A DNA stretch of 63,890 nt, filler included, from Myxococcota bacterium (GCA_023150835.1; 3 parts of 3 records of this genome joined end to end with filler, not necessarily neighbours in it), one strand, 5' to 3'. Positions 33,275 through 63,890 are shown, numbered from the whole stretch's first letter. Notes: generated by a model from the sequence alone, not told the origin. Made by a program: numbers and translations.

Positions 33275-33995
33275 TTGGTTTATATTATTTATATAGAGAA
33301 CATATTTACATGAACAAATAGCCAGTATTCTACGCAGAAACAACACAATCGACTTGCGTCCGCTCATCCGCAGATTGCAGCAAGCGAATTTCCAGATCTC
33401 TATCGCCCATGACGAAGTACCGTCTGTCCCAAAGAGGATGCGATCACTCGGCGGTTGTATTCCTTCACAGCATCGATCAGGTAGGGTGTGGGTTCTTCGT
33501 CGAACAAGTCTTGCACTTTTTGCACGTCTTCAATAGGAAGGCTCGCCGTTTCTTGTAAAGCGTCGATGTAAAACGCAAAGGTATCTTCTTTGACTGACTC
33601 AGCCTCGATTAATTCTGACACCTCTAGGCTTTTCTTGGCGTTTGGTGGCAAGAGTTCCATCCGCATACTCCATTATGGGTCAAATTGACAGCGTGGGGCG
33701 CAAGAAGCGAACCCGTCACAGAAGAAAAGAACGGCACCAAGCATGGGTTCACCTCGCGGGCCTCGCAAGTCCGTATAGCGCTAGACCACGTAGACTTGCA
33801 AGGGCTAAACGTTTTTTGACTCGCGCCCTCTCTCCTTGGAAGAAAAGGCTACGATCTCTCCCAAACAACCTTTCTCTTGCTCTGATTCACCGCCTTGACT
33901 TTGCACTTTGCTTGGGTATCCTCAAGCGATTGAATCGACGTGAAAGATCTGTTACCTCACGGAGCAGACCGCGCCAAGCGTGATGGAGGCGGTAC

Positions 33996-36908: not shown

Positions 36909-38779
36909 CAAAAACAACCGTCCCAAATCAGACCGCGCTACCACTCGCTGCACCGAACCAAGGCGCCACCAACGTCGAGAAGTTCGAATTCGAGCCGATC
37001 AAAGGCTATCCGATGCTGAATTGGCGCGGCAAACGTCCGTTCACTTCAACACAGTATTACCCAGCGCAACTAAAGGAAGTCCACGGCGAAGAAGTCGACG
37101 GCTGGCGCAACAAAATTTTCTGGGGCGACAACCTTCAAGTGATGAGCCATCTGCTTAAAGAATTTCGGGGAAAGGTTGATTTAATCTATATCGACCCTCC
37201 TTTCGATTCTAAAGCTGATTACAAAATGACAGTCACCACAAAAGGAAAATCAATATCTAATAATTGGTTATCCTTTGAAGAAAAACAGTACGGTGATATT
37301 TGGGTAAACGATGAATACTTACAATTCATGTTTGATCGTATTGTCATCGCACGAGAGCTTATTTCTTCTTCCGGTGCATTTTTTATGCATTGTGACTGGC
37401 ATAAGTCTCATCATTTACGTTGCCTATTGGATGAAATCTTTGGTTTTTCAAATTTCAGAAACGAAATTATTTGGGCATATCCAGGTCGAGAAATGCATAT
37501 AGAGAAAAAATATAACTCAAAACACGACACGATTCTATTCTATGCAAAATCAGAAAGTACTCGCGTGTATATGAAGCAAATTGCCATTACATACGACCGC
37601 GAAGAGAGGCTGAGAACTTTGCGAAGAAAAGTCCACCAAGATGTTGACGGGCGAGAATGGGTGTGGGAGACGCGTGGTCAAGCGACAGGACAAGAACCAT
37701 ACAAACGTTATATCGACGAAATTCTTGAAGATGGCAAAGCTATAAACGATTACTGGAACGACATTGAATATTCCGGGATAGATGATTGTTGGGATGACAT
37801 TCAATTTCTTCGCGGAAACGACCCAAAAAGAACTGGATACCCAACTCAAAAACCCGAGTCTCTTCTAGAGCGGATTGTAAAAGGGCATACACAGGAGGGA
37901 GGGCTAGTCTTCGATTGCTTTATGGGTTCGGGGACAACGCAGGCTGTTGCGATGAAGCTTGGGCGTCGCTTCATCGGAGCGGACATCAATTTGGGAGCGA
38001 TCCAAACAACGACAAAACGACTCATCAGCGTTGGCGGCGAAATCACACAAAGATCGCTGGATAACCAGACCAAACACTTTACAGGATTCGAGGTGTACAA
38101 CGTCAACCACTACGACATCTTCCGCAACCCTGTTCAAGCCAAGGAGTTGCTGATCGAGGCATTGGAGGTGCAGACGCTGGAGTTCAGTACCGTGTTTGAT
38201 GGCGAAAAGGACGGTCGCATGGTCAAGATCATGCCGATCAATCGGATCGCAACGCGGGCGGATTTGAACGAGTTAATTGCAGGCTTTGACTACAAAACAT
38301 GGGAACAAAAGCAGATCGAAAGTCCAAATCGTTCCGTCGAAAAACTTACGCTTGTCTGTATGGGACACGAACCCGATCTGGCTGCCCAACTGGAATTGGC
38401 CGTCAAGCCGTTCAAGATCGACGTCGAAGTGGTGGATATCCTGCGGGACAAAGCTGATTTGGAATTCAAACGCGATTCCCAAGCCCAACTCGCCATCAAG
38501 GGAGGCAAGCTGATTATCGAGAAGTTCTACCCGATGAACCTCCTACAAAAACTCTCTCTTCAAAAAGAGGCGGTGGAGGATTGGAAAGAGTTGGTCGAGT
38601 CTGTGCTGGTGGATTGGAATTACGATGGTGCGGTGCTTCAACCAGCAGAGTTGGACATTCCCGACAAAAACGAACTGGTCAAGGGCGAGTACAAGATACC
38701 AAAAGACGCGGGAACGATTCGCGTGAAGATCACAGACTTGCTCTCGGAGTCATGGGAAGGAAGCATCGACAATGGCTAA
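36905..38779 (+). CDS. mod: Type III R-M modification subunit (adenine MTase)
   Basis: WGDNL, IYIDPPF, YPTQKPE, DCFMGSGTT. Confidence 0.9.
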   Translation: MTKTTVPNQTALPLAAPNQGATNVEKFEFEPIKGYPMLNWRGKRPFTSTQYYPAQLKEVHGEEVDGWRNKIFWGDNLQVMSHLLKEFRGKVDLIYIDPPFDSKADYKMTVTTKGKSISNNWLSFEEKQYGDIWVNDEYLQFMFDRIVIARELISSSGAFFMHCDWHKSHHLRCLLDEIFGFSNFRNEIIWAYPGREMHIEKKYNSKHDTILFYAKSESTRVYMKQIAITYDREERLRTLRRKVHQDVDGREWVWETRGQATGQEPYKRYIDEILEDGKAINDYWNDIEYSGIDDCWDDIQFLRGNDPKRTGYPTQKPESLLERIVKGHTQEGGLVFDCFMGSGTTQAVAMKLGRRFIGADINLGAIQTTTKRLISVGGEITQRSLDNQTKHFTGFEVYNVNHYDIFRNPVQAKELLIEALEVQTLEFSTVFDGEKDGRMVKIMPINRIATRADLNELIAGFDYKTWEQKQIESPNRSVEKLTLVCMGHEPDLAAQLELAVKPFKIDVEVVDILRDKADLEFKRDSQAQLAIKGGKLIIEKFYPMNLLQKLSLQKEAVEDWKELVESVLVDWNYDGAVLQPAELDIPDKNELVKGEYKIPKDAGTIRVKITDLLSESWEGSIDNG

Positions 38780-41594
38780 ACGCTCAAAGTCCAAAGCCGT
38801 CGCATCACTCGACTTTGCTTTTTTTCAAGCGCTGTGGTTTTTCTATCAAGACAACCGTGGAACCATTCGGAAACACTACAAAGAACTCACGAAAAAGTTT
38901 TTGGATTTTAACAATCCTGAAAGAAATCCGAAGGCATTTCTTCGGCAACCGCAATTCGAAGCACTTGAGATCTATATCTTTCTGAAAGAGTTTCTTGATA
39001 ATGCCAAAATAGAAGAGATACTTCATCAATGGTTTGAGAAAAAAGGCTCATTCGCAGAGCGCAAGGAAGGCGGTATTGCATCGAATCAAGGAAGCTTCTT
39101 CGATTTTGTAAATCGGGAACAATATGAAGCGGTGTTTGCTGCGATGCGTAAAAACTCTCGCACATACCCAAACTACATCTTCGCGCTGACGATGGGAACG
39201 GGTAAAACCATCTTGATGGCGACCTGCATTTTCTATGAGTTTCTTTTGGGAAATAAGTTCAGCAAAGATACACGTTATTGCCACAATGCTTTGGTGTTTG
39301 CACCAGACAAAACGGTGCTTCAGTCTCTAAAAGAAATCGAATCCTTCGATCTGACTCGCGTTGTGCCACCTGAATACGTGAACTTCCTCACTTCTCATCT
39401 GCGCTTTCATTATCTCGAAGATGCCGGAACTTCGCTGGATACGTTAGATCATTCTCGCTTCAATATCATCGTTTCCAACACCCAAAAGATCATCCTCAAG
39501 CGTCGCCACAAAGACAAAACGGCTACGGATAAACTGTTTGGCGCGACGGGCGAGATACTGGCAACGGGTGTTTATGCCGATGCAGCCGATCTCTATAACC
39601 TCGATCAGCCCGAAGAAGAGGGAGAACTGACAACAAACCAACGCTTCGAAAAGCTGCGCCGTTTGGAACAGCTTGGTATTTATGTGGACGAGGCCCACCA
39701 CGCCTTCGGAAAAGCTCTTGCCAAAGATATGGGCGTGGGGGCAAAGGATACGGATACGAGTCTACGCACAACCATCGACACCCTCGCTGCGAGCCTCAAC
39801 AAATCGGGTACGCGTGTCGTCGCTTGCTACAACTACACTGGAACGCCTTACGTGGGCCGCGAAGTCCTACCGGAAGTGGTCTATGCTTATGGACTCAAAG
39901 AAGCCATCGAAAAGGGGTTTCTTAAGAAAGTGATGTTGCATGGCTACACCAACCCCCGAACCAACGAGTTTGTCGATATCGCCATCGAAACCTTCTTAAA
40001 AGAATCTCCGACAACTCCGCCCGAAGGGTTGCTACCGAAGCTGGCCTTTTTTGCATCCACCATCGAAGAACTGACGGAGGAACTCAAACCAGCCGTAGAG
40101 CGGGCGCTTGTGAAGCACAACATCCCAACGTCGCGCATTTTGGTGAACGTTGGGGACGATAAGATCACAAAAAACGATGATTTAAGAGAGTTCTACCGTT
40201 TGGATCAGCCAGATTCGGAAAAGCAATTCATTCTTTTGGTCAACAAAGGCCGCGAAGGTTGGAATTGTCGCTCTTTGTTCGGTGTTGGACTGTTCCGCGA
40301 ACCCAAATCAAAGGTGTTTGTGCTTCAAGCGACGATGCGTTGCCTACGATCCATTGGACAGGCTCAATACACCGGCCACGTCTTCCTTTCCGAAAGCAAC
40401 CTCAACATACTCAACGATGAGCTTCAACAGAACTTCCACATCAGCGCGGATGAGCTACAAACGGTTGCGAGCGACAAAGTACGTGTCCAAGTCCGCGTGA
40501 CGGAACCTACCGTCAAGATCAAGTTGGTGCGGGTACGCAAGCGTTACGAGATCAAAGAGAAACGGCTCACAGCAGGGCAAGCGTTGGGTCTTGATCGTTC
40601 AAACAAAGAGGCTTGGAAAGCCCTCGTTGAAAAGTACCTTTTTCTTGAGATACAGCAGGCGGGGTTGACCGCTGCGGATGCCGCTCGATCTCGATCCAGC
40701 CGAACCTTCGACTTGACCGAGCGCCGCGAAAAGCGAACATTCTCACGGATGACGCTTGTGGCCGAGATCGCTCGCTATCTGAACCGAAGCCCGTTGGAGA
40801 TCGAAGATCTGCTGGACAAAACGAAGGAAGGGACGGAGGAATTGGTCGCGATGGTCAACGAGTACAACGAGTTGTTGTACGACGAGGTGATCCCGCGCTT
40901 GTTTCACCAACTGTATGATCTTATCGAGGAACAACAAAAAGAAGAACACGAAGTCGATCTGGTCAAAAGCCCCCCAAACGGCTATTACGAGGTGACAGCG
41001 GCCAGAGACAAGATTGTTTACAGGGATATCTTTGCTCTTTCTCGTGAAGAGCGCGCAAAACTCTTACCGAACGGCGAGTACGCGGCGACGGCTGCTGAGG
41101 GCGATACCGCGTACCTAAAAAACTTGGAGATCATCGATCAAGAGCGCGAAAAAAGTTTTCACCTCGATCCTTACTGCTTTGATTCAGGTTCGGAAAAGTC
41201 GCTTTTCTTGGATTTATTGCGCGAGCAGCGTGTGAAGAAGATCTACTTTACCGGGATGTTAACTCACGGCCAATCAGACTTTTTTATTCAGTACATCGAT
41301 CCAGACTCGAATACGGTGCGTAGCTACTATCCAGACTTTATCTTCCAACGTGAAGAAGAAGATGGAAGCCACAAGTACGTCCTTGTGGAAGTGAAAGCCG
41401 ACAACCAGATCGAAAAAGCCGTGGTACAGGCAAAGAAGTCTTTTGCGCAGCAGATCGCGGTGGCAAGCGGCATGGAGTATCAGATCCTTAAATCTACCGA
41501 TGCGGATAAAAAAGCCTACCAAAGCCTTCTTTCGCCACCCACAGAGGACTCTCCACAGGGAAGCGGTCACTCCAAGCCTGACTTATTCTCTTGA
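38772..41594 (+). CDS. res: Type III R-M restriction subunit (DEAH helicase + PD-(D/E)XK)
   Basis: MGTGKT, DEAHH, TGTP, REGW, QATMRCLR, YYPDF...VEVK. Confidence 0.88.
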   Translation: MAKRSKSKAVASLDFAFFQALWFFYQDNRGTIRKHYKELTKKFLDFNNPERNPKAFLRQPQFEALEIYIFLKEFLDNAKIEEILHQWFEKKGSFAERKEGGIASNQGSFFDFVNREQYEAVFAAMRKNSRTYPNYIFALTMGTGKTILMATCIFYEFLLGNKFSKDTRYCHNALVFAPDKTVLQSLKEIESFDLTRVVPPEYVNFLTSHLRFHYLEDAGTSLDTLDHSRFNIIVSNTQKIILKRRHKDKTATDKLFGATGEILATGVYADAADLYNLDQPEEEGELTTNQRFEKLRRLEQLGIYVDEAHHAFGKALAKDMGVGAKDTDTSLRTTIDTLAASLNKSGTRVVACYNYTGTPYVGREVLPEVVYAYGLKEAIEKGFLKKVMLHGYTNPRTNEFVDIAIETFLKESPTTPPEGLLPKLAFFASTIEELTEELKPAVERALVKHNIPTSRILVNVGDDKITKNDDLREFYRLDQPDSEKQFILLVNKGREGWNCRSLFGVGLFREPKSKVFVLQATMRCLRSIGQAQYTGHVFLSESNLNILNDELQQNFHISADELQTVASDKVRVQVRVTEPTVKIKLVRVRKRYEIKEKRLTAGQALGLDRSNKEAWKALVEKYLFLEIQQAGLTAADAARSRSSRTFDLTERREKRTFSRMTLVAEIARYLNRSPLEIEDLLDKTKEGTEELVAMVNEYNELLYDEVIPRLFHQLYDLIEEQQKEEHEVDLVKSPPNGYYEVTAARDKIVYRDIFALSREERAKLLPNGEYAATAAEGDTAYLKNLEIIDQEREKSFHLDPYCFDSGSEKSLFLDLLREQRVKKIYFTGMLTHGQSDFFIQYIDPDSNTVRSYYPDFIFQREEEDGSHKYVLVEVKADNQIEKAVVQAKKSFAQQIAVASGMEYQILKSTDADKKAYQSLLSPPTEDSPQGSGHSKPDLFS

Positions 41595-51840: not shown

Positions 51841-51940
51841 NNNNNNNNNNNNNNNNNNNNNNNNNNNNNNNNNNNNNNNNNNNNTTAATTAATTAANNNN
51901 NNNNNNNNNNNNNNNNNNNNNNNNNNNNNNNNNNNNNNNN
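51841..51940. other. Assembly gap / artificial contig spacer
   Basis: N-run with TTAATTAATTAA. Confidence 0.97.
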
Positions 51941-52157
51941 CGCCCTCCCCCGTGAACAGGGGAGGGAGCGAAAGTCGGAAGCATCGGGGATTTTGTTTTT
52001 TCATGACGCACGCTGTATGCACGACGCGCAGACGCTGCCCGTTCCAACTTCCCCCCGTTCACGGGGGGATTGAGGGGGGGAGAACAAAAAAAGGCGATCA
52101 AGACCGACTCTACGAGGTTTCCACCTTAACAAGGCGCGTATGGGGCAGCGCCCCACA
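51941..52157 (+). repeat. REP/MITE-like element, second copy
   Basis: Near-identical to 25685-25881; ends tatggggcagcgccccac, an inverted match to gtaggggcagaccccata. Confidence 0.85.
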
Positions 52158-52217
52158 AAACCAACCAAATGCGTCAAGCCCCACAGCACCATTCGACTGC
52201 ATAAAGTCTGAGGGCGT

Positions 52218-54620
52218 TCAAGGAAAAATAAGCTGCGTGGAGTCGACTTCTTCGACGACACCCAACAGCGCGTCGTATCGCCCCTGCCAAAGGCACAGAT
52301 CACCAGCGATCGGCTTGATCAGTTGACGTTGCTGGGCTTGCAAAAAGCTGTGCTGATAAAGCTGCACCACAAAGGGCTGAAACACCCGCATCAACGAAGC
52401 AGAAGGCATCTGCGGTGCGTGTTGAAGGATCTGCAATGCCTCTAGCGCGGCTTGAACAGCCCGATCAAACGCCTCGAAAAAAGCCGCGATCGGCTCGGAT
52501 TCTTGGACCATCTGCTCGCGTTGTGTTTGGAGTACGCGTTGAAGATCCACAGGGTGAACAAAAACAGGCCGCGTATCTTCGGGGATCATCCGATATCTTT
52601 CGGAACTGGAAGCAAAGGCAAACTCGCGCTCAAGCCGCCGGATATCGAACGGATCAGTATTCACGGAGTGATAGACTTGGCGGAAATACTGTTGGAAGAT
52701 GGCGGGATCGTGAAAGTCTGAGGCCCGAAGAGACCGCAACATCAACCGCGTCTGATCTGTGGCTGTGGTGTAGATCCCTTGGGGAAGATGCGCTTCTTGA
52801 AGCTCGACGATATGGGTTGTTCCCGAGGCGAGGCGAGCTTCGCGATTGCACCGCCCTGCGGCTTGGATCAGGCTATCCAACGGCCCCATCACGCGAAACA
52901 CCACAGGAAAATCCAGATCCACGCCGGCTTCGACGACTTGGGTGGCGACAAGACGACAATCCCGCTGCGATCGTCCAAGAACAAACTGAACAGCCTGAAG
53001 CACAAAACTCCGATGCAACGGGCACAATCGACTGGACAGGTGAAAACACCCCTCCATCCCCGAGACTTCTTCGAGCAGCTTCCGTGCGTCTTTGATCGTG
53101 TTGAGGATCGCAAGACAACGTGGGGTTTCTGCGATCTCCTCCGCAAGTTCCTCAAAAGACCAGCGCGGCTCGCCATCTATTGGAAAAGAAAATTCGACTC
53201 TTCCCAGCGCTCGGAAATGATCGGCTGGATCACGAACGATCTCACGAATACCCGTCAAGGGCGTGAGTTCTTTTGAGGGACGAAGAACCTGATCCGAGAA
53301 AGCGGGCTGTGTCGCCGTACAAAAAATCACCGAGCATCCGAACTCACGGACAAGATAACGCAGCATATCCAAAGTCGGGGCCAACAGCTTGGTGGGTAGC
53401 ATCTGCACTTCATCAAGGATGATTACGGAGCGCGGGATATTGTGCAACTTGCGTAGTTTGCTGTTTCTCGAAGCAAAAAGGCTCTCGAACAATTGGACGT
53501 TGGTTGTGACCACGATCGGAGCATCCCAGTTCTCAGCGGCAAGGCGCTGCCAACGCTCGATGGCGTCGATCACTTCGGCATCGTGAGAGGTTTCGTTGTG
53601 TTCGCGGCGGCTGCTGTGATGTTCAAGAACATAGGCCGCCCCAAAGATCTCCCGATACACCGAGGCATTCTGCTCGATGATGCTGGTGTACGGGATCGCC
53701 ACGATCACTCGACGCATCCGATGTTTTTGAGCGTGTGCGAGTGCAAACGCCATCGAAGATCGGGTCTTCCCTCCGCCCGTAGGTACCGTCATTGAAAAAA
53801 AGCCGGGGGATTGGTTCGCTGCATCCAGCGCATCTCGATAGATCTGCTGGCGATGCGCATACAACTCGCCTTGTTGAGGCGTAGCTCCCGAAGGCAACAC
53901 AAACGCTTGTTGTGCTGCTTGCAAGCGCTGAAAAAGCCATGAGACCGCTCCCTCCGTTGGTTCGCCTCGAAGCCGCGCTATTTCGGGGCGATCATGTGCT
54001 TGTTCGCTTCGAAGCCGCGATGTTTCGGGGCGATCATGTGCTTCTGTGTCCAAACAATCCGCATCCACAAGGCACGAATGTAACAAACGCCACGCCAGCG
54101 CGACACTCCCTTCCGCATCTTTGCGCATCATATCAAGAGACGTCGGTAGCTGCGGAGGCTCTAGGGGAACGTACGCCTCCCACGCTTGGCGCCCCTCTGT
54201 TGCGATCTCTCGGATCCAAGTCTGCTCGGCTGCACGGCGCACCCGCGAACCCAGATCTGCCTTCACGTCCTGCAATCCGCGATGATGGCAGTCCATCAGA
54301 TAGGCCAACAGCAGATAGCGCTTGTCTGAAAAGGCATCCAAAAAAAGCTGCAACGCGACGATCGCATGTTCCAGCTTTTTGCTCGGCTTTCCAGCAACAC
54401 GCTCCCGAAGATAGTTCTGCCATGCGGGGTTCAACTTCCCGACATCGTGCCAAAATCCGATCAATCGGGCGGCTTCACTTGCATCGATCGCTTCTGCAAA
54501 GCACGCAGCGCGCTCCGAGACCCCAAGAAGATGCTCCAAAAGACCATGCCATCGCCCTGATGCGTTAGGGCCATGCGCAACGGCCTGCTCGCTATCGATT
54601 GAACTCCTCTGTTGTGACAT
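52218..54620 (-). CDS. cas3: CRISPR-associated HD nuclease-helicase Cas3 (type I-C-like)
   Basis: LLEHL, WHDVGK, HH, LVDAD, VPTGGGKT, PYTSIIEQ, DEVQ, TATQP, QAAGRCNR. Confidence 0.95.
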   Translation of the reverse strand: MSQQRSSIDSEQAVAHGPNASGRWHGLLEHLLGVSERAACFAEAIDASEAARLIGFWHDVGKLNPAWQNYLRERVAGKPSKKLEHAIVALQLFLDAFSDKRYLLLAYLMDCHHRGLQDVKADLGSRVRRAAEQTWIREIATEGRQAWEAYVPLEPPQLPTSLDMMRKDAEGSVALAWRLLHSCLVDADCLDTEAHDRPETSRLRSEQAHDRPEIARLRGEPTEGAVSWLFQRLQAAQQAFVLPSGATPQQGELYAHRQQIYRDALDAANQSPGFFSMTVPTGGGKTRSSMAFALAHAQKHRMRRVIVAIPYTSIIEQNASVYREIFGAAYVLEHHSSRREHNETSHDAEVIDAIERWQRLAAENWDAPIVVTTNVQLFESLFASRNSKLRKLHNIPRSVIILDEVQMLPTKLLAPTLDMLRYLVREFGCSVIFCTATQPAFSDQVLRPSKELTPLTGIREIVRDPADHFRALGRVEFSFPIDGEPRWSFEELAEEIAETPRCLAILNTIKDARKLLEEVSGMEGCFHLSSRLCPLHRSFVLQAVQFVLGRSQRDCRLVATQVVEAGVDLDFPVVFRVMGPLDSLIQAAGRCNREARLASGTTHIVELQEAHLPQGIYTTATDQTRLMLRSLRASDFHDPAIFQQYFRQVYHSVNTDPFDIRRLEREFAFASSSERYRMIPEDTRPVFVHPVDLQRVLQTQREQMVQESEPIAAFFEAFDRAVQAALEALQILQHAPQMPSASLMRVFQPFVVQLYQHSFLQAQQRQLIKPIAGDLCLWQGRYDALLGVVEEVDSTQLIFP

Positions 54621-55290
54621 TGCACACTCCTGCGATGTATGAATTCCCGACCGCTGCCGATGCCTTCAAACGTACCACCGCCGATGCCTTCAAGCGCACT
54701 GCTGTCGACGTTCTCCCCGCCATTTCCTAGGTTCGTATCCAAACAACGATGGTAGACCTTCAAACGTACCACTGCCAACGCTCTCCTCGCCATCGGCGTA
54801 AACCACGCGGAGGATCGCGCAAGATCGTCGGAATGATCGGCCACAACCGCCCGGGTTGTTTGCGCAGCGGAACATAAAAAGCTTTATCGTTATAGTCCAA
54901 CAAGTAGATCGGCTGCGCTTGATGGTCATACATCTGGATGCCGATGATCTGATGGTGCTTGTTGATCTGCGACTTACAAAACAAGATGATCAGCTCGTCT
55001 GGTATATCCGCAACAAATGTCCGAAAACGCTCCATCGCATGAGGTGTCACAAAACAGCACATCCAAACCTCCGCTCGGTTTTGCTCGTTCCGAATTTGTA
55101 AGACAGCAACCCAAAGCCTTACTCGCAATCCCTGTAAAACAACCGCACCCAGTTTTAGCAAACGTCGCTGAAAAACGACAAGGGGCAAACTTTTCTGACG
55201 CTCTTGTTTCTTTTGGCACTTCGGATTACCATCCACCCCAAAAATGCGCTCCCAGACCTCACCCTCCCCAACCACAACAAGGACGACAAG

Positions 55291-56481
55291 ATGACCGAGC
55301 AACGGTGGGAACTCTATATCGACGAATCTGGAAACTTCTCTGATCCAAACGATGAAGTCGTGGTCGCCGGACTGTTGGTTCACACCGAGAAAGCCGGCCT
55401 TGACGGGCGTGAGATCGCCCAAGCCATCCACACCACGCTCCCTCACATCCCCCTGCCACTTCACGCCTCGTTTCTCAAACGCCCCAGCTACGGGATCTTT
55501 TGCTACGCTTCTGCCCAACAACCCAAAACAGCCCACCACACCCGCCAACTCGACCCCAAGCGCATCAAAACCTACGAACAAGCCCTCCAAATCTTAGGCA
55601 AAAAAGCCCAAAAAACGCTCACACAAATGACCGACACGCTTCGACGCGGAAGAAGTCTTTCTGCCTATTACAACGAACTGCACTCATGGGAGACCCAACT
55701 CAAACCCCACCCCGATCTCTATAAACAACTCAAACACGACCAAGAACTCGATCTCGCGCACATCGCTCGGATCATCCGCGATCTCAACGAAACAACCGAT
55801 GCCAACCACGCGCTCTTGCTGTTTGCCGCCGAAGAAACACGCGCAAGCGCCGTCCAGCCCAAACAAGATCGCTATCTCCTCCTCCTCCTCGCCCTTATCG
55901 AACGTGCGTACCGTGTCCTCCACATACGCACACAAGGACACTTCCGCCTCGAAATCAAAGTCGCCACACGCGACGTTTACTACGCTCCCTTCAACATCAA
56001 CATCCGCCTCTCCAACCCGATCTTCAAAGAACTCGAAGCCCACCTCCGCGCTTGGCTTGGAGCCTTTACCTCTTCAACCGACCACGGCGTGCCCAAATCT
56101 CCAGAATGTCCCTTCTCTTTCCATCCTCCCATGCGGTACGACCTAGAGATCCCCACTGCACTCGCGCTCGCCGATATCTTTTCCAACACCGCCTACAGCA
56201 CCCTCCGCAACGGACTCAAGAAACACAAACAACACCTCTCCCTCGCTCTCTGGAAAACTGCCATCGCCCAACTCATCGGCCAATGGCCGCTCTCCAGCCT
56301 TCCGCCTCACTCTCCTGCGGGCCTTTCTCCGCGTAGCCACTTCGCCGCAAGCCCCCATATCGCCGACGCTTTGCGTCAAGCCATCCATACCGAACACACC
56401 ACACAAACCTTCGAACAAGACCCCCGTACACAGAACATCCGCCTCTGGGCCAAAGAACAAGCCCTCTCTTGGCTCCCCTAG
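55291..56481 (+). CDS. DUF3800-like RNase H-fold protein
   Basis: LYIDESGN at the N-terminus, LALADIFSN near the C-terminus. Confidence 0.65.
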   Translation: MTEQRWELYIDESGNFSDPNDEVVVAGLLVHTEKAGLDGREIAQAIHTTLPHIPLPLHASFLKRPSYGIFCYASAQQPKTAHHTRQLDPKRIKTYEQALQILGKKAQKTLTQMTDTLRRGRSLSAYYNELHSWETQLKPHPDLYKQLKHDQELDLAHIARIIRDLNETTDANHALLLFAAEETRASAVQPKQDRYLLLLLALIERAYRVLHIRTQGHFRLEIKVATRDVYYAPFNINIRLSNPIFKELEAHLRAWLGAFTSSTDHGVPKSPECPFSFHPPMRYDLEIPTALALADIFSNTAYSTLRNGLKKHKQHLSLALWKTAIAQLIGQWPLSSLPPHSPAGLSPRSHFAASPHIADALRQAIHTEHTTQTFEQDPRTQNIRLWAKEQALSWLP

Positions 56482-56569
56482 ATCCGAGACCATCGCTTCG
56501 ACATCCCCGTCACATCCCTTTGTTGAAACGTTTGCGCCCAAAACCTCATCCGCTCGGAGAACACACACC

Positions 56570-57313
56570 ATGCCACTTCACCTCGCACTTCTGACCCTAC
56601 AACGCTGGCAATTGGGACTCCCTTACAACAGCGAAGAACTATCCCACGCTTGCAAGACTTTTCAGAAAGCCATTCAAAGTGTATGTCGCCGAAAATCGGC
56701 TTTTTCTGCGCTATCTTCTTCCGACAAAGAAGAAGTCGAATCTGATCTTTTTTCCGTTCTACTCTCTCGACTGAAGCAAGACAAAGATTTCCCCACCGAA
56801 AACAAAGCCTACGGATGGCTGATCCTAAGCATCGGCGGGTTCTTGAAAGATCGCTACGACAAACAAAAACACTTGACCTTTTTCGCTGACTTCCGAAACG
56901 ACGAACACTCCGATCAAGAACCCGAGTGGCAAGACGATTCATCCCCCAATCCCGAAGAGCTACTCGAACAACTCCAACAAACCACCGCACTCGCTGCTTT
57001 CCAAAAACAAAAAGATGCCTTTATTGCGAGTTTCTTACAAACACTCAGCGAACAAAAACGCCCACAAAAACGCCAAACCATCAAAGAGATGGAAGACATC
57101 CACTTTTACCAGACCTGCACGGCTGAAGAACTCGCACAGCAAAGCGGAAAGAAGACAAATACGCTCCACCAACGCCACTGTCGCTTGCGCGCCGACCTGC
57201 AAGCCCACCTGCACGGCCCCCCATGCCAACAGATACCAGCGCACGAGAGACAGACGCTCTTTGCTTGGCTCGCACTTCTCGACGGAAAACCCGGCATCAA
57301 GTACGACCCCTAA
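56570..57313 (+). CDS. ECF-type sigma factor (CalpS-like position)
   Basis: Region-2-like DKEEVESDLF...AYGWL; region-4 HTH TAEELAQQSGKKTNTLHQRHCRLR. Confidence 0.7.
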   Translation: MPLHLALLTLQRWQLGLPYNSEELSHACKTFQKAIQSVCRRKSAFSALSSSDKEEVESDLFSVLLSRLKQDKDFPTENKAYGWLILSIGGFLKDRYDKQKHLTFFADFRNDEHSDQEPEWQDDSSPNPEELLEQLQQTTALAAFQKQKDAFIASFLQTLSEQKRPQKRQTIKEMEDIHFYQTCTAEELAQQSGKKTNTLHQRHCRLRADLQAHLHGPPCQQIPAHERQTLFAWLALLDGKPGIKYDP

Positions 57314-57459
57314 ACATTTTTTTGCTTCTTGTCAGAAACCTGACGCTACTGACGTCTTTGAAATAACTGTTGGATACGCACACGCTAGGACTCTTGTTCA
57401 TTCAAGCCCACTCCTCCAATCCCGCGTATCTGAAATCTCGATCAATAGGATAGAATCGT

Positions 57460-59172
57460 ATGTTTACGCTGCCATCTCTCTTTCCAGATCTCCCTCTCAA
57501 AGCTTCCACTTCGCCCTTGGCGTGGGACGATCTACCACAAATCCCCGAAAGTCGAACCCTCCAAGCAGCTCTCTCTCTGCACGGCTTCGATGACCCAAAA
57601 CTCGAACAGTGGACCCAAAAGCTCGCAGAGGCCGACCCCGATCATACGCATCTTCGCCGTTCCATCGCCCTTTTGACGGGACTCTCGTGCTTTGTCGACC
57701 AAGTCGACGAGACATGGCTGCTCTGTCTCCAAGCCCCCAAAGGTCGTGCCTTGCAGACGCATATCCTCCACGCCCAAGCAGACGCCGTGTTGCAAAATGA
57801 CACCCAAGACACGCTCGTCCTCCCCAGCTTCAAACCACCCCAAGCTCTCTGTGTCCATGATGACCTTGGGATCGGCCTTTTGCTCCAATGTGTAGACGGC
57901 GCTCTCCAATTCACGCCCATCGCTCGCACACAGCCACAACAGGTCCACACGCAAAAGCTCGATGCGTCCGTTCTTTTTGAAGCATTGCCAGAAATCCGCT
58001 CCACTGATCCACAGCTAGGACAATGGGTCGAAGAAAAAATCCAACAAGGAGACGATTGGTCCACAGCCGTTGCTGCGGGCATGATCGCACGTCTCCCTCA
58101 TCCTCCAAAAGGTGCTGCCGCTCGCCAGCTTCTTCAATCACTCTTACAGGGCACTCCGCCTCCGCCTGCCTCGTGGCAGCTTTTCGTCCAAAGCTGGACA
58201 GACCCACAGATCCGATGGATTCAAGCTCTTTTCCAAACCAAGCTCGCTTCCCTCGCCGAAGAAATCGACCGCTTGATGCTGGCCGACTTCGAGGAATACA
58301 CCGATGAATCCGAAGCTTCCGACCGCGATGTACCTGTGGACTTGCAAGAACCCCACTCGATCCACCAAACGACCCAAGCATCCGCCTCTTCCGTTCCTGA
58401 TGATAAAGAGGGTTCGCCGCTCTCGAACAACGATGCTCTCGATCTGTTGCTGCGCCGCGACGAACTCGCAAGTGTCAGTCTTCTTTTACGCGCTCGCGAA
58501 TCTTTCTCAACATTTTCCGAGCCTCTCGATCTTCTCGATCAAACAGGCTCCGCATGGGTCCATAGCCTAGACATGACCTCCGATATCTCGCAACATCCGA
58601 TGCTTCAGCGCATCCTCCAACACGACCCCACTGCATGGTGGGCCTATCCCGCCGCCACTCGCATCCTCCCCGATATATCGGCTCTCTTGCCCCAAAAACA
58701 GATCACCATTCCCTCCGTCACTCGATCAGCCCGTACTCCCAAAAAACACCCAAAACAAACCACCCCTCTCACCCCTTCTCCGTTGCTGCTCGACCCCGAC
58801 GTTCTCACCCCTGATCTTGCCCGCCTCTACTGCATCCCCGTCGCGGCCCCCTCCCTAACGCAACGCTATCTCGCACCCCACGCACGCTCCGCTCCTCCCG
58901 CGATTTTCTCTGATTCTATCGCCTACAACAAGTCGCAGGAACTCACCCTCCAATCGACACCACACCCCCGCCTCTTTGTGTTCGAAAGCTTCTCCCCAAA
59001 ACTCAAGAGTTCCGAGATCATGCGCCTCTTCTTCGCAAAACAGATGCTCTACGAAGGCCCCCCACAAGAACGCCTTCTTCTCGACTGTTCCTCATGGCAA
59101 ATCGACTCCGCTGGATCGTTGAACCTCGATATCTTTTGCAACGCCCTCCGCGTCGAATGGAGCACCTCATGA
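57460..59172 (+). CDS. Large protein in the CalpT (anti-sigma / protease target) position
   Basis: Between sigma and Lon-SAVED, ATGA-coupled to the latter; Pro-rich linker then small beta-rich C-domain. Confidence 0.55.
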   Translation: MFTLPSLFPDLPLKASTSPLAWDDLPQIPESRTLQAALSLHGFDDPKLEQWTQKLAEADPDHTHLRRSIALLTGLSCFVDQVDETWLLCLQAPKGRALQTHILHAQADAVLQNDTQDTLVLPSFKPPQALCVHDDLGIGLLLQCVDGALQFTPIARTQPQQVHTQKLDASVLFEALPEIRSTDPQLGQWVEEKIQQGDDWSTAVAAGMIARLPHPPKGAAARQLLQSLLQGTPPPPASWQLFVQSWTDPQIRWIQALFQTKLASLAEEIDRLMLADFEEYTDESEASDRDVPVDLQEPHSIHQTTQASASSVPDDKEGSPLSNNDALDLLLRRDELASVSLLLRARESFSTFSEPLDLLDQTGSAWVHSLDMTSDISQHPMLQRILQHDPTAWWAYPAATRILPDISALLPQKQITIPSVTRSARTPKKHPKQTTPLTPSPLLLDPDVLTPDLARLYCIPVAAPSLTQRYLAPHARSAPPAIFSDSIAYNKSQELTLQSTPHPRLFVFESFSPKLKSSEIMRLFFAKQMLYEGPPQERLLLDCSSWQIDSAGSLNLDIFCNALRVEWSTS

Positions 59173-60716
59173 TCCTGCACATCATCAAACGCTACCGCGA
59201 AACCCAACGCCCCGATCTTCTCGACCAGATACTCGCCACTCTCCGAGAACCTTGCTCGATAAAAGATTTATGCGAAATATTCGCTTTATTCTCAGAACAA
59301 GATATTTATCAAGAGCAGCTTTTTTTTGCTTTATTTCTCCATCTCCGACAATTTTCTTTGCATTACCCCCCCCCACAACTCGCCGAACTTTGCGGCCTCG
59401 ATACGCCCTTTGCGTCACAGATCTTTTCTTCTCCTCCCTCCATTCTCCGAAAGATCACTTTCCCTATCGCCAACGAACAACAAGCCGACCTCTGCACCGC
59501 CTACATCATCCCGCTCCAAGACGACGGACCATCCGTCTTGTGGGGGCCTGTCTCCACACACACCACCTTACAAAAACGCGACCAAGACCTCCAGCGCATC
59601 CAAACCGCCACCCAAAAACGCTTTTTCGTAGCTTTCGACAAAGACTTCACAGATCGCTCTTTTATGCTCGCCCTCGCTGCGGCTTTGTTGCTAGACCGAC
59701 CCGATCAATGGGACCCATTCGCTTTTTCCGGTGAGATCGACCACGCAGGCCATATCCTCGACGTTGGCTACATGGAAGCCAAACAAGCCGTCTGCAAAAA
59801 ACACCACAAAAAACTCCTCTCCGCCCAAATCTTCCAACACCTCGACGAGATCCGCTTCTGGCTCTCGGGTTCCCCTCTCCCTCTTCCCTCCCTCTTCTTA
59901 GCCAAGTCCCTTTCCCACGGGCAAAACGCCCTTCAAACCATCGAAAAGACGATCCAACGAAGATATCCTTTCTTTCGGATCGATACGCTTTGCGCTCTCT
60001 TTGGCTTTCAACGCCAAGACTTCTTGCTCTGCCACGAAGACCGCCTCCCCGACGATCCCGAATATTGGAAGCGCTATCTACAAAACGGCGTGCGTCTGCA
60101 CTTTGAACGCCTACTTTATACGGCTCCTGATCACTCGTTTGTCTTGCACGCCGCGTCTTCCATTATCGCTCTTACTGTAGGCATCGGCTCCCTGCTTGGC
60201 GCAAAACGACCGATCGTCCTCTACCACTTCCAAAACAACGACTACTACCCCGTCATCGACCTTTCACAAAACAACATCCGCGAACTCAAAGCCATCCTCC
60301 CCGAAACATCGGATGAATCACGCCTCCTTTGCATCCAGCCACAAGCCGACGGCCCAAAGCACATCGTCGGGATCTACCTCGCAAGCCACGATCCCTTCGG
60401 TGCTTGCAATACCATGCTGCAACAATACGGAGACGGATGGGGTTTCACCTTTCTCTCCCCTCCCCAACATCAAGGAAATCTCCCACTCTCCGCCGATTGG
60501 CTCCCTTATGTCCGCGAGATCTACTCATTTCTCAACCGCCTCAGCCGCTCAAGCGTAAGTGAAATGCACCTTGTCCTCAGTGTTCCTATCCCCATCTCCT
60601 ACGCTTTGGGCATGGCCTGTGGGCATTTTTTTCATGCCTATGTCTATAATTTTAACCCGACAACCAAAGAATACACCCGCGTCCTCGCCCTCCACGAACA
60701 CCCCAGCCCCTTTTAA
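59169..60716 (+). CDS. calpL: Lon protease-SAVED fusion (CalpL-like type III CRISPR effector)
   Basis: Lon dyad FTDRSFMLALAAA and FSGEID...VGYMEAK; SAVED-like LGAKRPIVLYHF and HLVLSVPIPISYALG...VYNF. Confidence 0.82.
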   Translation: MILHIIKRYRETQRPDLLDQILATLREPCSIKDLCEIFALFSEQDIYQEQLFFALFLHLRQFSLHYPPPQLAELCGLDTPFASQIFSSPPSILRKITFPIANEQQADLCTAYIIPLQDDGPSVLWGPVSTHTTLQKRDQDLQRIQTATQKRFFVAFDKDFTDRSFMLALAAALLLDRPDQWDPFAFSGEIDHAGHILDVGYMEAKQAVCKKHHKKLLSAQIFQHLDEIRFWLSGSPLPLPSLFLAKSLSHGQNALQTIEKTIQRRYPFFRIDTLCALFGFQRQDFLLCHEDRLPDDPEYWKRYLQNGVRLHFERLLYTAPDHSFVLHAASSIIALTVGIGSLLGAKRPIVLYHFQNNDYYPVIDLSQNNIRELKAILPETSDESRLLCIQPQADGPKHIVGIYLASHDPFGACNTMLQQYGDGWGFTFLSPPQHQGNLPLSADWLPYVREIYSFLNRLSRSSVSEMHLVLSVPIPISYALGMACGHFFHAYVYNFNPTTKEYTRVLALHEHPSPF

Positions 60717-60730
60717 CTTCATAGCGACTT

Positions 60731-61055
60731 ATACGAAATCCGCCCATTGTGTGATCGTAAAACGTAGGGGCAGACAGGTGTGGCTGCCCAACCGTAGGGC
60801 ATCTACGCACTATCCTTCGATCACACATCTTGCGGATATCGTATTATGCAATTCGGTAGATATGTGGGGCATTGCCCCTCGCCCCACAAAGCGTGATGGC
60901 CCCCTTGACCCCGTATTGGCGAAAAGACCTATCGTTTTCCGCCCAACAACTCTGTCGCTTGATGCCGCACGAACACGGCTTTTTTTTCAACTTTTTATAC
61001 GAAATCTGCTCGTTGTGTGATAAGAATATGTAGGGGCAGCCCCCTGTGGCTGCCC
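60731..61055 (+). repeat. Cluster of GTAG-type REP-like repeats
   Basis: atacgaratcygcycrttgtgtgat...gtaggggcag at 60731 and 60997 (also 25599); GTGGGG-type unit at 60864. Confidence 0.75.
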
Positions 61056-61159
61056 AACAACAGGACCGCGACAGCAAACCGTGGCGACGTTTCGCATACA
61101 CCTCTCTCGGATATCGGGCGATCTGTGTTTTCGTGTTGGTGCGAGACTTCCCGACAGCC

Positions 61160-62278
61160 TCAATGTAGCCCTTCGCCAAGCTCCAATAGCACGATCTGAG
61201 AGCCCAAGTCTTGACAAAACACTCTTTCCGCAGAACCGTCCGCCCACGCATCAAACTCATGCGTCGCGGGTGGACGTGGGTTGCCTTGGAGCGATTTGTA
61301 GTCCAAACGCCGAATCGATCTCTGACGATTTCCGTAAACATAACGCGCCAGATCGTCTATGCGCTCGTTCAACATCACCCTGCGATCTTCCGCCAAGCCT
61401 CTTGTACTTCTAAGAAAATGAGATCCAAAGACGATCGTTTCGAGCGGAGCAGCAAAAACCTCCGTCCGATAAATGGTTTTTTTCGTCTCGTTCCACACCA
61501 ATTGGCCCCACGCTGAAAGCGTTGCGTCATCGCCTACAAACAACAACAACGTTTCCGCGATGCCCTCACAAGACTCTCGCGGATACTGGCCAAATGCCGA
61601 CAAGCAGCGAAATGCGTTCAGATGTTCCCGAACATGATGCTCAAAATCCAACCGCACAGGCAGCTTCGGGAGTCGCAAAAGTTCTTGCCCTGATTCGAAA
61701 ATGTAGATGCTCTCGTCCGCATAAAACATCGCCAAACTTTGCAAAAATCCTTGAATACTTTTGAATCCACCCGTCAAATTAAACAAGATCCGATAACCAT
61801 TTTCCCGATAAGCCACCAATTCCGTTGCGCACCATTGCGCAAGATCCGCCATCCCTGCCTGAAATCCTTCGAGGCTGTCTGTGCGCAAACCACCGATATC
61901 TTCTTTGAACACCACTTGATGCCCTTGCGCCTCAAGCCAAGCCGCCACCACTCGCGCTGATTGCCGACCCAGCCATGTATCCGTGCATAGCAAACAATGG
62001 ATATCTGGACGGCCTTTGCGACCTGCGACTTTTTCCTCTTCAAGCCTGTTGAGCGCGTTTAATTCCGCACTCAAGCGGCAAGCATCCCCAACAGTCGCTT
62101 CCCGAAATCTCTCCCGCCGCTTTTCGATATGTTCCTCCAATCTCCCTCGCACCTCCTCAGATATCTCTTCGCCTGATCTCGCATTGGCATTCGCAAAAAT
62201 CGCCGAGCGCAATTCATTGGAGACATCATTCGTCAAAGAACTCGTCCCACACGGTGAAAGAATAAACTTTGCAAACAT
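61160..62278 (-). CDS. cami1: CARF (APE2256-type)-wHTH-RelE protein (Cami1-like)
   Basis: SPCGTS, LSAELNAL, TDT, NLTGGFK, YIFE; RelE-like tail DYKSLQG...HEFDAW...ERVFC...GLH. Confidence 0.8.
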   Translation of the reverse strand: MFAKFILSPCGTSSLTNDVSNELRSAIFANANARSGEEISEEVRGRLEEHIEKRRERFREATVGDACRLSAELNALNRLEEEKVAGRKGRPDIHCLLCTDTWLGRQSARVVAAWLEAQGHQVVFKEDIGGLRTDSLEGFQAGMADLAQWCATELVAYRENGYRILFNLTGGFKSIQGFLQSLAMFYADESIYIFESGQELLRLPKLPVRLDFEHHVREHLNAFRCLSAFGQYPRESCEGIAETLLLFVGDDATLSAWGQLVWNETKKTIYRTEVFAAPLETIVFGSHFLRSTRGLAEDRRVMLNERIDDLARYVYGNRQRSIRRLDYKSLQGNPRPPATHEFDAWADGSAERVFCQDLGSQIVLLELGEGLH

Positions 62279-62354
62279 TTTCCTCTCCTTTTCTTCTTCT
62301 TTGTTTCAGTCTTCTTTTGTTTTCTGCTTGGGCGGACGTATTTGGGTTTGATCG

Positions 62355-62480
62355 GTGGGGTTCCACACCACGCCCCGCAAGGGAGCAAAGCCCCCTTGAC
62401 CCCGTATTGGCGGGACAATCCGACGTGTTTCAAATCAACAGCTCTGCCGCTTGAACTTCCTCGAACTCGGGGTTCTTGTC
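62355..62480 (+). repeat. REP-like repeat, direct copy of 60864-60985
   Basis: Shared gcccccttgaccccgtattggcg (60899-60921, 62390-62412) and similar flanks. Confidence 0.8.
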
Positions 62481-62515
62481 AACCACGCAAATCCGACGGC
62501 TTATCAAAAAGAGCC

Positions 62516-63322
62516 TTACCCGCGCTCAGCCGCCGCCGATGTTTGCTGGTTTTCTCTCGGCCTTTTTTGTACACGCCATATCAGCGTCGGTCCATAACGA
62601 TGCCCCGCAAGGCCCTCACAATCAAACGAGCATCCATACGCACGAAAAGACTGGACTCTCGCCAACAATGCCTCGTCGCTTTCTCTTTCGCTTCCGTACC
62701 TCAGTCGATACCGAATGAATTCTTCGCGATTTTTGTAAGAATCGCTATTCGATCCATCCGTCACCAAAAGACCCCCATCCACCAGCTTATTCAACACTTG
62801 GTAGATCTTCGGTGGCTTCAACCAACCGATCCCGCTGCCTCCTTCACCCCAGCTATCCCCCCGATAAAAAAACACATCCACAGCCTCCAAATGATGACGA
62901 AAAGTGTACTCTCCCAGCCCTTTTTTGCGGATCACTTTGATCTTTCGGCCTGTTTCAACGTGTTGATAGATCTGCTCCAACCAGCGAGGCGAAAAACGCC
63001 GACGCATCTGTCCTCGAAACATATACTCCGATCGAGCTTCCACTCTCTTCTCCACCGAACGGATCAGCCGCATCTTGAGATGCTCCGCCATCCATCGCTC
63101 AAATCCTCCCTCAATCCCCGGCACCGTCCCACGATCCACAAACCAAAACACCTCGCAATCATCCACAAAATACCGCATCGGATCGGCCAGATCATGCCCA
63201 CAACACGGGTAGTACAACAACTTTGGCCGCTCCCTCTCGCTTGTTCGCGCTGTCCCTCCTTGCACGCTCTCGCCCCCCACTTCGCTCCCATCAACCGTCC
63301 GATGATTCGACTGATTTGGCAT
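62516..63322 (-). CDS. Conserved hypothetical protein, possibly Rossmann-like
   Basis: LYYPCCGHD, FWFVD, VFFYRGDSWGEGGSG, GGLLVTDGSN; start uncertain. Confidence 0.65.
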   Translation of the reverse strand: MPNQSNHRTVDGSEVGGESVQGGTARTSERERPKLLYYPCCGHDLADPMRYFVDDCEVFWFVDRGTVPGIEGGFERWMAEHLKMRLIRSVEKRVEARSEYMFRGQMRRRFSPRWLEQIYQHVETGRKIKVIRKKGLGEYTFRHHLEAVDVFFYRGDSWGEGGSGIGWLKPPKIYQVLNKLVDGGLLVTDGSNSDSYKNREEFIRYRLRYGSERESDEALLARVQSFRAYGCSFDCEGLAGHRYGPTLIWRVQKRPRENQQTSAAAERG

Positions 63323-63470
63323 GGCTCTCGCCCTTTCTCACGCAACGCGCTCTTTCTTGGCCGCGACTCTTCCGCTCACCAACAAGCGCCGCTCCTCCCC
63401 TCTAAACGCTCTCGCTCTCCCGTCTCTGACAAATTTTTCTGCCGCGCCCCTTTCTCCCCCAAAAAAACAC

Positions 63471-63757
63471 CTAGCCCTCTTGGACCAAGTTCAAAAATGT
63501 GTCGTAAAGTTCGGAGCTTAAACGAAAACCAGATCGTTGAACAAGCTCGTCTAATAACGGTTTTGCCAAAGGAACAAAGCCCTTGTGTTTTGCTTCGATC
63601 AATATGCCCAACACCCCGATCACATTCAAATTACATCGTTTCGCAACCTGTCTTCCCCGCCTTTCATCCATCAACAAAAGTCCCGCGTTTAATTCTGTGG
63701 CGAGAACGATCGCTTCCGCTTCGCCTCTGTCCAATTCTCCTTCGAGTGCTCTTACTG
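63471..63757 (-). pseudogene. DUF3368/PIN-domain protein, 5' part missing
   Basis: [12 protein letters not shown]...LMDERRGR...[10 protein letters not shown]; frame closed at about 63760 by foreign sequence. Confidence 0.8.
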
Positions 63758-63890
63758 GTTAGCCCGTAAAGCCCAAGAGCTTTAGCCTTGGGATATAAGG
63801 GGTTTATACGCTTTAGCGGCTTTAGCCCATGTTCAGGGTTGACAAATCGAAGTTCATTGCCTAGTCTACCTCGAACAATACGTGACAGTC
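63758..63890. mobile_element. Probable IS200/IS605-superfamily element end
   Basis: Subterminal hairpin cccaag-agctttagc-cttggg, repeated gctttagc; interrupts the PIN gene. Confidence 0.5.

Follow-up and report, generated by a model that had tools for sequence, protein, structure and literature searches.

In regulated proteolysis of the RseA type, an anti-sigma factor is cut in response to a signal, its remnant is degraded, and a sigma factor of the extracytoplasmic function (ECF) class is freed. To our knowledge, the CalpL-CalpT-CalpS cascade is the only instance of a CRISPR second messenger that acts through a transcription switch, and a MazF-like CalpT is the only target described for it. 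We examined a 63,890-nt stretch of Myxococcota DNA (GCA_023150835.1; hereafter the window, meaning this whole stretch), in which an ECF-like sigma gene, a gene for a 570-aa protein (the middle protein) and a Lon-SAVED protease gene follow one another on one strand. We consider it reasonably likely that this locus is a cyclic adenylate (cA)-gated protease-to-sigma switch of the CalpL-CalpT-CalpS type, built with a different and larger CalpT.

The first CalpT report gives the CalpT of the type system 271 residues, with Ala194 in the P1 position, and assigns the catalytic dyad of CalpL to S152 and K193, the S152A variant being inactive (bioRxiv 10.1101/2021.12.06.471393). In the CalpT of Ca. Cloacimonas, the cut falls within LAAA (P1 A204), and cami1 adjoins calpL in the same organism, according to a later preprint (bioRxiv 10.1101/2024.05.08.593097). 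A further paper names seven SAVED residues of Ss CalpL, i.e., S325, H345, R361, S391, H392, S451 and H474 (PMC11417357).

The Lon-SAVED family is found in five of 401 sampled genomes, this one included. At three of five other CalpL loci, a gene for about 205 residues, a gene for 263–305 residues and CalpL (479–489 aa) share a strand, their ends overlapping or abutting; at the remaining two, that order was not seen within the 1.5-kb flanks, and one of these has csx1 upstream. We refer to the proteins of 263, 280 and 305 residues as presumed CalpTs by position and size only; they have no Pfam match. The window presents the same order, with a middle gene of twice the length, and all three genes lie on the plus strand where an earlier sequence-only reading had placed them (Table 1).

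The protease

The third gene clearly encodes CalpL with an intact dyad. Along its full length, its product matches the PADLOC families SAVED4--SAVED_LON_TM (1.4e-93) and CRISPR-Lon (8.6e-77). Among PDB sequences it matches two CalpL proteins, the Sulfurihydrogenibium one at 1.5e-47 (7qda/8b0u) and that from Ca. Cloacimonas at 2.7e-34 (9eyi). In the 7qda alignment, Ser189 (TCT, 59658–59660) and Lys230 (AAA, 59781–59783) pair with S152 and K193 of the Sulfurihydrogenibium enzyme; these numbers, like those of the SAVED residues below, are counted in the long open reading frame (ORF) of 540 aa. Hand mapping on the same alignment, from which ligand specificity is not readable, finds five of the seven named SAVED residues kept (His378 for H345, Arg396 for R361, Ser431 for S391, His432 for H392, and Ser496 for S451) and two changed (S325 to Ile358, and H474 to Asn519).

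The alignments to the Lon-SAVED family profiles start only near residue 55 of this ORF, and in-frame ATG codons at 59157 and 59169 overlap the stop codon of the middle gene (59170–59172, ATGA). The actual CalpL therefore probably has about 515–519 residues, starting at one or the other of these codons. A frameshift was considered for the 79-nt overlap of the two ORFs and rejected, the in-frame ATG codons accounting for it. The coupled Lon-SAVED gene with a complete Ser/Lys pair, which the sequence-only reading had proposed, is thus borne out. Among the six genomes of the phylum set, CalpL was found in this one only; the related-locus search of genome contigs returned no CalpL relative, and the word-based protein search found no long fused forms of it.

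Architecture of the middle protein

The middle protein has no match in Pfam, NCBIfam or PADLOC. In its AlphaFold2 (AF2) model, built on a 56-sequence alignment and with a mean predicted local distance difference test (pLDDT) score of 74, an immunoglobulin (Ig)-like sandwich and a confidently predicted helical domain are followed by a low-confidence linker and a small beta domain, referred to here as the C-domain. Judged by this model, the protein is a chimera, with a CalpT-like fold at its C-terminus and a different family at its N-terminus. A substrate 'of unknown type', as it had been called beforehand, is apt for the N-terminal part, a separate family without a MazF match, and no longer so for the C-terminus; likewise the expected 'mostly helical' N-terminal part holds for residues 170–410 and overlooked the modelled Ig-like sandwich at 64–155. 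The lack of a MazF match, the Pro-rich linker and the small beta domain (residues 485–569 in AF2) were all anticipated correctly.

The C-domain carries the link to CalpT. Foldseek against the PDB pairs it with chain C of 8b0u, from the CalpL/T10 complex (probability 1.00, TM(target) 0.64), and VIA-align superposes model residues 480–569 on chain residues 195–270 with a Z-score of 7.8 and a root-mean-square deviation of 2.6 Å over 75 of 76 residues; because the sequence identity is 5% and Z lies below 8, this is a match at the level of fold only. The same chain ranks first of 993 re-examined Foldseek chains, where the next match to the C-domain has Z 3.8, and first of 48,161 representative chains compared independently of Foldseek, where it is the sole row covering 480–569 among the matches listed, all the others falling on the helical domain. 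We regard it as highly likely, on the strength of the modelled fold, that the C-domain is a CalpL-docking element.

The linker (residues 411–484) contains 14 Pro, 8 Ala and 14 Ser plus Thr in 74 residues, and the two motifs singled out in advance, VAAPS (461–465) and ARSAPP (475–480), the latter within LAPHARSAPPA (471–481), are both present. Residue 480 superposes on CalpT10 residue 195, with which chain C begins, and the stretch APHARSAPPA (472–481) stands at this junction, at the place of the cut in CalpT. Small-residue stretches occur at the position of the candidate cleavage segment in two relatives as well (P0007 and P0033). In sum, the middle protein shares with CalpTs a C-terminal T10 fold (as modelled), an Ala-containing linker before it (a sequence feature), and a gene that lies between those in the calpS and calpL positions and is coupled to calpL; its 570 residues fall outside their size range of about 270–305.

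A 570-aa homologue (P0005), 94% identical, is present in other assemblies. The acidic insert of the helical domain, which is missing from relatives of about 350 residues, is 60% identical between the two proteins, the rest is 92–100% identical, and linker and C-domain show no difference at all (100%). By sequence, the C-domain is found only in P0007, P0008 and the near-identical P0005 and P0065; sequence comparison gave no support for a T10-like domain in P0015, P0033 or P0034.

The sigma gene

The first gene may encode a full-length ECF-like sigma factor, an assignment that we make weakly from profile matches. The best of these in NCBIfam is NF041236 (III-E RpoE-like; 1e-6, 28.8 bits against a cut-off of 100, residues 26–214), followed by TIGR02937 (sigma70-ECF; 2.7e-6, 27.1 bits against a cut-off of 42.9, residues 29–213). 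At another of the sampled CalpL loci, the presumed CalpS gives a similarly faint match (Sigma70_r2, 3.2e-5). Five relatives of the window protein are 42–80% identical to it. Residues ~57–70, 80–96 and 183–209 are what we take, by eye from the ECF consensus, to be regions 2.2, 2.4 and 4.2.

The N-module and its family

A HMMER search of 1.84 billion representatives yields 56 hits to the middle protein at E ≤ 0.001, five of them at ≤ 1e-10. Most relatives of the N-terminal part (the N-module, whose helical part we call the AWW domain) have 320–365 residues, align with residues ~70–400, and stop a few residues past an invariant WW. In an alignment of 41 sequences (A2), W393 and W394 are invariant and D183, G207, R211, W253, R333, L343, D360, G363 and R384 are at least 90% conserved. 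The best fold matches of the helical domain are generic three-helix bundles (Z 5.9–7.6), and those of the N-terminal part folded alone are three-helix or spectrin-type bundles and Ig-like sandwiches (best rows Z 5.9), none convincing. Searches of Pfam, NCBIfam and PADLOC gave no MazF/PemK family match; the fold matches listed include no MazF, no Csx30 and no known anti-sigma fold, an absence that excludes none of them. The ESM Atlas gave no usable match for the N-module, the word-based protein search a single relative of the middle protein, and the related-locus search of metagenome contigs no relative for P0064 or P0008.

One member of the family is a natural fusion. P0015, a metagenomic protein of 1088 residues, matches the N-module with residues 120–409 (E 1e-10) and CalpL with residues 694–1085 (28% identity and E 1e-29, with both Ser and Lys retained; SAVED_LON at 4.8e-66 in PADLOC). 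A PDB sequence search with the middle-protein profile (A1) returned SAVED chains only, by way of this fused member.

The N-module lies directly downstream of a sigma gene in all three genomes of the genus. A same-genus genome (64% complete) encodes a 27–29%-identical sigma protein next to an AWW protein of 409 residues lacking a T10 domain, and this pair, with no CalpL nearby, indicates that the N-module does not always depend on CalpL. In another comparison within the genus, the order cas3, sigma gene, middle gene is kept, on a contig that stops inside the middle gene; given this synteny and the 94%-identical protein elsewhere, the ORFs of the locus are not there by chance. We lean towards the N-module being the part that binds the sigma factor.

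Sigma-AWW-Lon triads in Acidobacteriota

A degenerate DNA pattern for RDDLEGVxLLL occurs at 17 places in species-representative genomes, and at six of them it encodes a member of the AWW family (two uncultured bins, Vicinamibacteria, Luteitalea, and other Acidobacteriota). When the class to which one of these belongs was searched as well, seven of 121 genomes had the family; two of the seven had turned up before, and six loci were newly included. Twelve loci resulted (L013, L014, L017, L018, L022, L024, L040, L041 and L044–L047, of which L040 and L041 look near-identical). At all twelve, a Lon-like gene for ~580 residues lies directly downstream of the AWW gene, as detected with a profile built from four of the loci and therefore circular for those and independent for the other eight; at 11 of 12, a sigma-like gene for ~260 residues lies directly upstream (TIGR02937 to 5e-6, Sigma70_r2 to 6e-5).

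These triads are related to the window locus in two of their three members. The A2 profile matches the window middle protein at 2.4e-82, and the triad sigma is homologous to the window sigma (hhalign probability 90.9%, E 1.1e-6, 211 columns). The triad protease has a canonical Ser/Lys Lon motif (consensus VDGPSFG...GGLRxK) and weak Lon_C/LonB matches (1.6e-4, 1e-6); its helical C-terminal half has no SAVED match, hhalign of the acidobacterial Lon-like proteins with CalpL gave no match from shallow profiles, and the ~580-aa Lon-like profile (A4) matches nothing when the window's genome is translated in all six frames. The Cas10 palm family scores over its cut-off in none of five triad genomes tested. 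From the triad loci and this Cas10 result, the sigma and AWW genes appear to be an old, co-inherited couple, found elsewhere with another Lon-type protease and with no sign of CRISPR linkage. A literature search, with bioRxiv supplements and the Nature version of the CalpL work outside its coverage, found no description of such triads or of so long a CalpT.

A proposed switch and its alternatives

The arrangement is best read as a cascade whose sigma/anti-sigma cargo was swapped for a different pair, while the cleavable linker and the docking domain were retained or acquired. The N-module, a regular partner of this sigma family, would hold the sigma factor inactive, and the T10-like C-domain would pre-dock the middle protein on CalpL. 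On meeting foreign RNA, the Cas10 of a III-B and/or III-D system would make cyclic tetra-adenylate (cA4), which would bind the SAVED domain; CalpL would then oligomerise and cut the linker near residues 475–481. The N-module-sigma complex would leave CalpL, the N-module would be degraded, and the sigma factor would redirect RNA polymerase. For the window system, we infer sigma binding, docking, cut site, activating nucleotide and regulon alike, and we hold the full sequence of steps to be fairly probable. That a new module is plugged into a CalpS-T-L-like cascade, as first suggested from the sequence, agrees with the modelled C-domain fold, the linker position and the family of the N-module beside sigma and Lon genes; the middle protein does not align with CalpT over its whole length, so that the refuting outcome named in that reading did not arise.

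Several observations weigh against this switch. The T10 match is rated 'middling' by the tool itself and concerns a common Ig-like fold; hhalign and hmmsearch of the C-domain against the three presumed canonical CalpTs gave no match, and Pfam DUF2080 has none in the middle protein (nor in the presumed canonical CalpTs). The AWW proteins of about 350 residues in Acidobacteriota finish at the AWW motif and have no T10 domain, and in the 64%-complete genome the sigma-AWW pair has neither a T10 domain nor a CalpL nearby (an M23 peptidase gene follows the AWW gene). The proposed ECF sigma kept its near full-length NCBIfam matches and lost ground on the rest: both scores stay under the curated cut-offs, Pfam has no match, and a search with its profile (A5) found no relative by sequence in the PDB. 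The type III loci of the genome stand on contigs other than that of the three genes, where the sole cas gene is a type I-C-like cas3.

The signal may be sought elsewhere in the genome. The window consists of three contigs from a single metagenome-assembled genome of 7.56 Mb (239 contigs, 93% complete), C32 (1–25881), C33 (25981–51839) and C114 (51940–63889), joined by short runs of N (176 in total). All three genes lie on C114 (11,950 nt); the genes on C32 and C33 are on separate contigs, with no physical linkage outside 51940–63889 in this assembly, and are therefore treated as unlinked to the locus. C114 ends 280 nt past cas3 and 120 nt past its last ORF, and so any type III linkage to the locus is not visible. 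A III-B operon (Cas10b, Cmr1, Cmr3-6, and a Cas6) is on C111 and a III-D operon with Cas10d on C44; both Cas10 proteins contain GGDD, and in neither was an HD motif seen within the first 120 residues. In addition, C183 carries a block of Csx1, Cas6, reverse transcriptase, PrimPol, Cas1 and Cas2 genes by a 42-repeat array, C237 a complete I-B system, C138 Cas8b/Cas1/Cas4 genes by an array, and C149 a I-C operon without cas3, possibly contiguous with C114 at its cas3 end. In all, the genome has five or more sets of CRISPR-Cas genes (III-B, III-D, I-C, and two of type I-B, one of the latter seen in part) and four arrays of 13–85 repeats.

Metatranscriptome contigs (four runs of one sample in one study) match the locus with 0 differences and bridge both the sigma/middle junction (57156–57838) and the middle/CalpL junction (58011–59208). 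They are compatible with transcription and co-transcription of the locus; possible DNA content in these libraries and the lack of proof of a single transcript count on the other side. Parts of the sigma gene and of the flanks have no such cover in some runs, from which we draw no conclusion.

The first CalpT report took the large CalpT fragment for a latent MazF-like toxin (bioRxiv 10.1101/2021.12.06.471393), and the N-module could in the same way be an effector, CalpL cleavage freeing a toxic or active fragment of 45–50 kDa while the sigma factor only regulates the operon or acts independently. The fold matches listed contain no recognisable anti-sigma fold for the N-module, and its invariant polar and aromatic residues (R211, R333, D360, R384, W393 and W394) could equally serve an activity. 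We nevertheless think an effector role unlikely, as the position directly downstream of a homologous sigma gene, at 11 of 12 acidobacterial loci and in three of three genomes of the genus, is the pattern of a sigma/anti-sigma pair, and no enzyme family matches the N-module.

The contig setting raises the further question of whether the cascade is uncoupled from CRISPR here, drawing on another nucleotide source or surviving as an orphan or decaying remnant by a type I-C locus. No type III gene on C114, the I-C cas3 as neighbour, the two altered SAVED residues, and the lack of a Cas10 palm match over the cut-off in five acidobacterial genomes with N-module relatives all fit such a state. Decay is at odds with three intact ORFs and with domains 92–100% identical in a relative from other assemblies; two GGDD Cas10 genes, Csx1 and CARF-RelE are present in the genome, RNA-library contigs cover the genes, and the contig ends hide any linkage. 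An uncoupled cascade is thus quite improbable in our view. That the middle protein is no CalpL substrate at all, its C-domain a generic Ig-like fold and its gene merely lodged between sigma and protease genes, would suit the middling Z and the lack of sequence similarity to CalpT, and is very improbable given that the best of 48,161 chains is the only domain for which CalpL binding is known (75 of 76 residues), that the stop codon overlaps the CalpL start, that the gene order is that of other CalpL loci, and that P0015 joins the N-module to a Lon-SAVED protein.

Neighbouring genes and other features of the window

Coordinates are collected in Table 1. A second effector gene of the cyclic oligoadenylate (cOA) type adjoins calpL, and the 475-aa ORF next to it may represent another accessory gene so far unrecognised. 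The 425-aa ORF between the cas3 side and the sigma gene is missing from the otherwise syntenic same-genus locus, where only about 33 residues match, and it therefore looks inserted. A scan for promoters and terminators gave counts no higher than expected from shuffled sequence.

The GC skew of the plus strand is strongly negative (−0.19 to −0.37) over 55000–63000, unlike the remainder of the window, and continues over the minus-strand CARF-RelE gene. The intergenic stretch between calpL and CARF-RelE (60717–61100) is a genome repeat with hundreds of copies (1,737 blastn hits, up to ~700 over one position) and holds the hairpin GGGCAGCC...GGCTGCCC; RNA-library contigs reach a summed depth of 450–1,470 there, compared with ~5 on genes, with many alternative joints. 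On C33, 29653–41594 is a probable defence or mobile block; on C32, 21662–21915 is a tandem repeat of a 41-nt unit (6.3 copies, 93% matches).

Table 1. Features of the three-gene locus, of the middle protein and of the surrounding contigs.
Feature	Residues	Position (nt)	Strand	Size, evidence and remarks
ECF-like sigma (CalpS position)		56570–57313	+	247 aa
Middle protein, chimeric CalpT analogue, presumed cleavable anti-sigma		57460–59172	+	570 aa
Low-confidence N-terminus	1–63			AF2
Ig-like beta-sandwich	64–155	57649–57924	+	AF2, strands pLDDT 62–84; generic Ig-like matches only, Z ~4
Helical 'AWW' domain	170–410	57967–58689	+	pLDDT ~90–98
Acidic, variable, disordered insert in helical domain	281–322	58300–58425	+	pLDDT <50
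Pro-rich linker	411–484	58690–58911	+	low pLDDT
Candidate CalpL cleavage segment VAAPSLTQRYLAPHARSAPPA	461–481	58840–58902	+	
CalpT10-like beta domain, presumed CalpL-docking	485–570	58912–59169	+	
CalpL Lon-SAVED ORF		59094–60716	+	540 aa as opened
SAVED sensor domain of CalpL	353–532	60150–60689	+	Pfam PF18145 8e-12; NCBIfam SAVED 1.3e-17
Cas3, type I-C-like		52218–54620	-	PADLOC Cas3c 1e-182; NCBIfam cas3_core 2.2e-36; start of C114
ORF without assignment		54760–55590	-	on C114
425-aa ORF		55204–56481		between cas3-side gene and sigma gene; faint Pfam DUF3800 match only
CARF-RelE (Cami1-like), second cOA-type effector		61160–62278	-	PADLOC CARF7--CARF_RelE 2.8e-117; Pfam Cas_APE2256 1.9e-30; adjoins calpL
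475-aa ORF		62342–63769		adjoins CARF-RelE gene; no Pfam, NCBIfam or PADLOC match
DUF3987 + Toprim protein		within 29653–41594		1068 aa; C33
UvrD helicase fused to PD-(D/E)XK nuclease		within 29653–41594		970 aa; C33
N6/N4 DNA methylase		within 29653–41594		624 aa; C33
ResIII helicase with TnsA-like endonuclease domain		within 29653–41594		940 aa; C33

Comparison with known systems

A wider reading, which we offer tentatively and rate below the switch itself, is that the AWW module represents a class of anti-sigma factors not described before, cytoplasmic and each under the control of a dedicated Lon-type protease, most of its members in CRISPR-independent triads, and that the window pair has been wired into type III signalling by an added T10 domain, docking domains serving as exchangeable adaptors. 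If so, the fusion of an AWW module with a Lon-SAVED protease in P0015 would be a further step of the same wiring, and the choice of docking domain would decide which protease, and hence which signal, frees a given sigma factor. A second, unrelated sigma-holding module with the same docking domain would show that docking domain and cargo are separable, and would supply a rule from nature for designing proteolytic switches under cOA control. The locus links a CRISPR system to the wider, uncharacterised sigma/Lon-protease triads of soil and sludge bacteria and suggests that gene switches gated by proteases form a broader class; the 570-aa protein offers a direct experimental handle on both the separability and the triads.

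The nearest described relatives are the cA4-activated CalpL-CalpT-CalpS systems of Sulfurihydrogenibium sp. YO3AOP1 and Ca. Cloacimonas acidaminovorans. The window locus has in common with them a homologous SAVED protease with a Ser/Lys dyad, the order sigma, target, protease, and a target whose C-terminal T10 fold, as modelled, follows a flexible, Ala-containing linker; with the Ca. Cloacimonas locus it also shares a nearby CARF-RelE (Cami1-like) effector. It differs in the target, which has 570 residues, compared with 263–305, and in which the MazF-like, sigma-binding part of ~23 kDa is replaced by an Ig-like and helical module of ~400 residues from another family. The sigma factor (247 aa) is closer to that of the acidobacterial triads, and contig C114 has no type III genes.

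The type III-E system, in which Craspase (gRAMP/TPR-CHAT) acts on Csx30, the partner of the sigma factor CASP-sigma (RpoE), is alike in principle, in that a CRISPR-controlled protease cuts a sigma-binding protein and releases an ECF-like sigma factor. Csx30 is likewise large, of a ~560-aa class; there is no Csx30 match in NCBIfam or PADLOC and no Csx30 structure among the fold matches listed. The proteases are different, the one in the window being a Lon-SAVED enzyme that a nucleotide would activate, whereas Craspase is a CHAT caspase activated by direct contact with the RNA-bound complex. Compared with cascades of the RseA type, all components of the locus are cytoplasmic, and the trigger would be an immune second messenger. 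The acidobacterial triads, finally, share a homologous N-module, a homologous sigma factor and a Ser/Lys Lon-type protease gene directly downstream; theirs combine a non-SAVED protease of ~580 residues with a middle protein of ~350, whereas the window combines a Lon-SAVED protease with a middle protein of 570.

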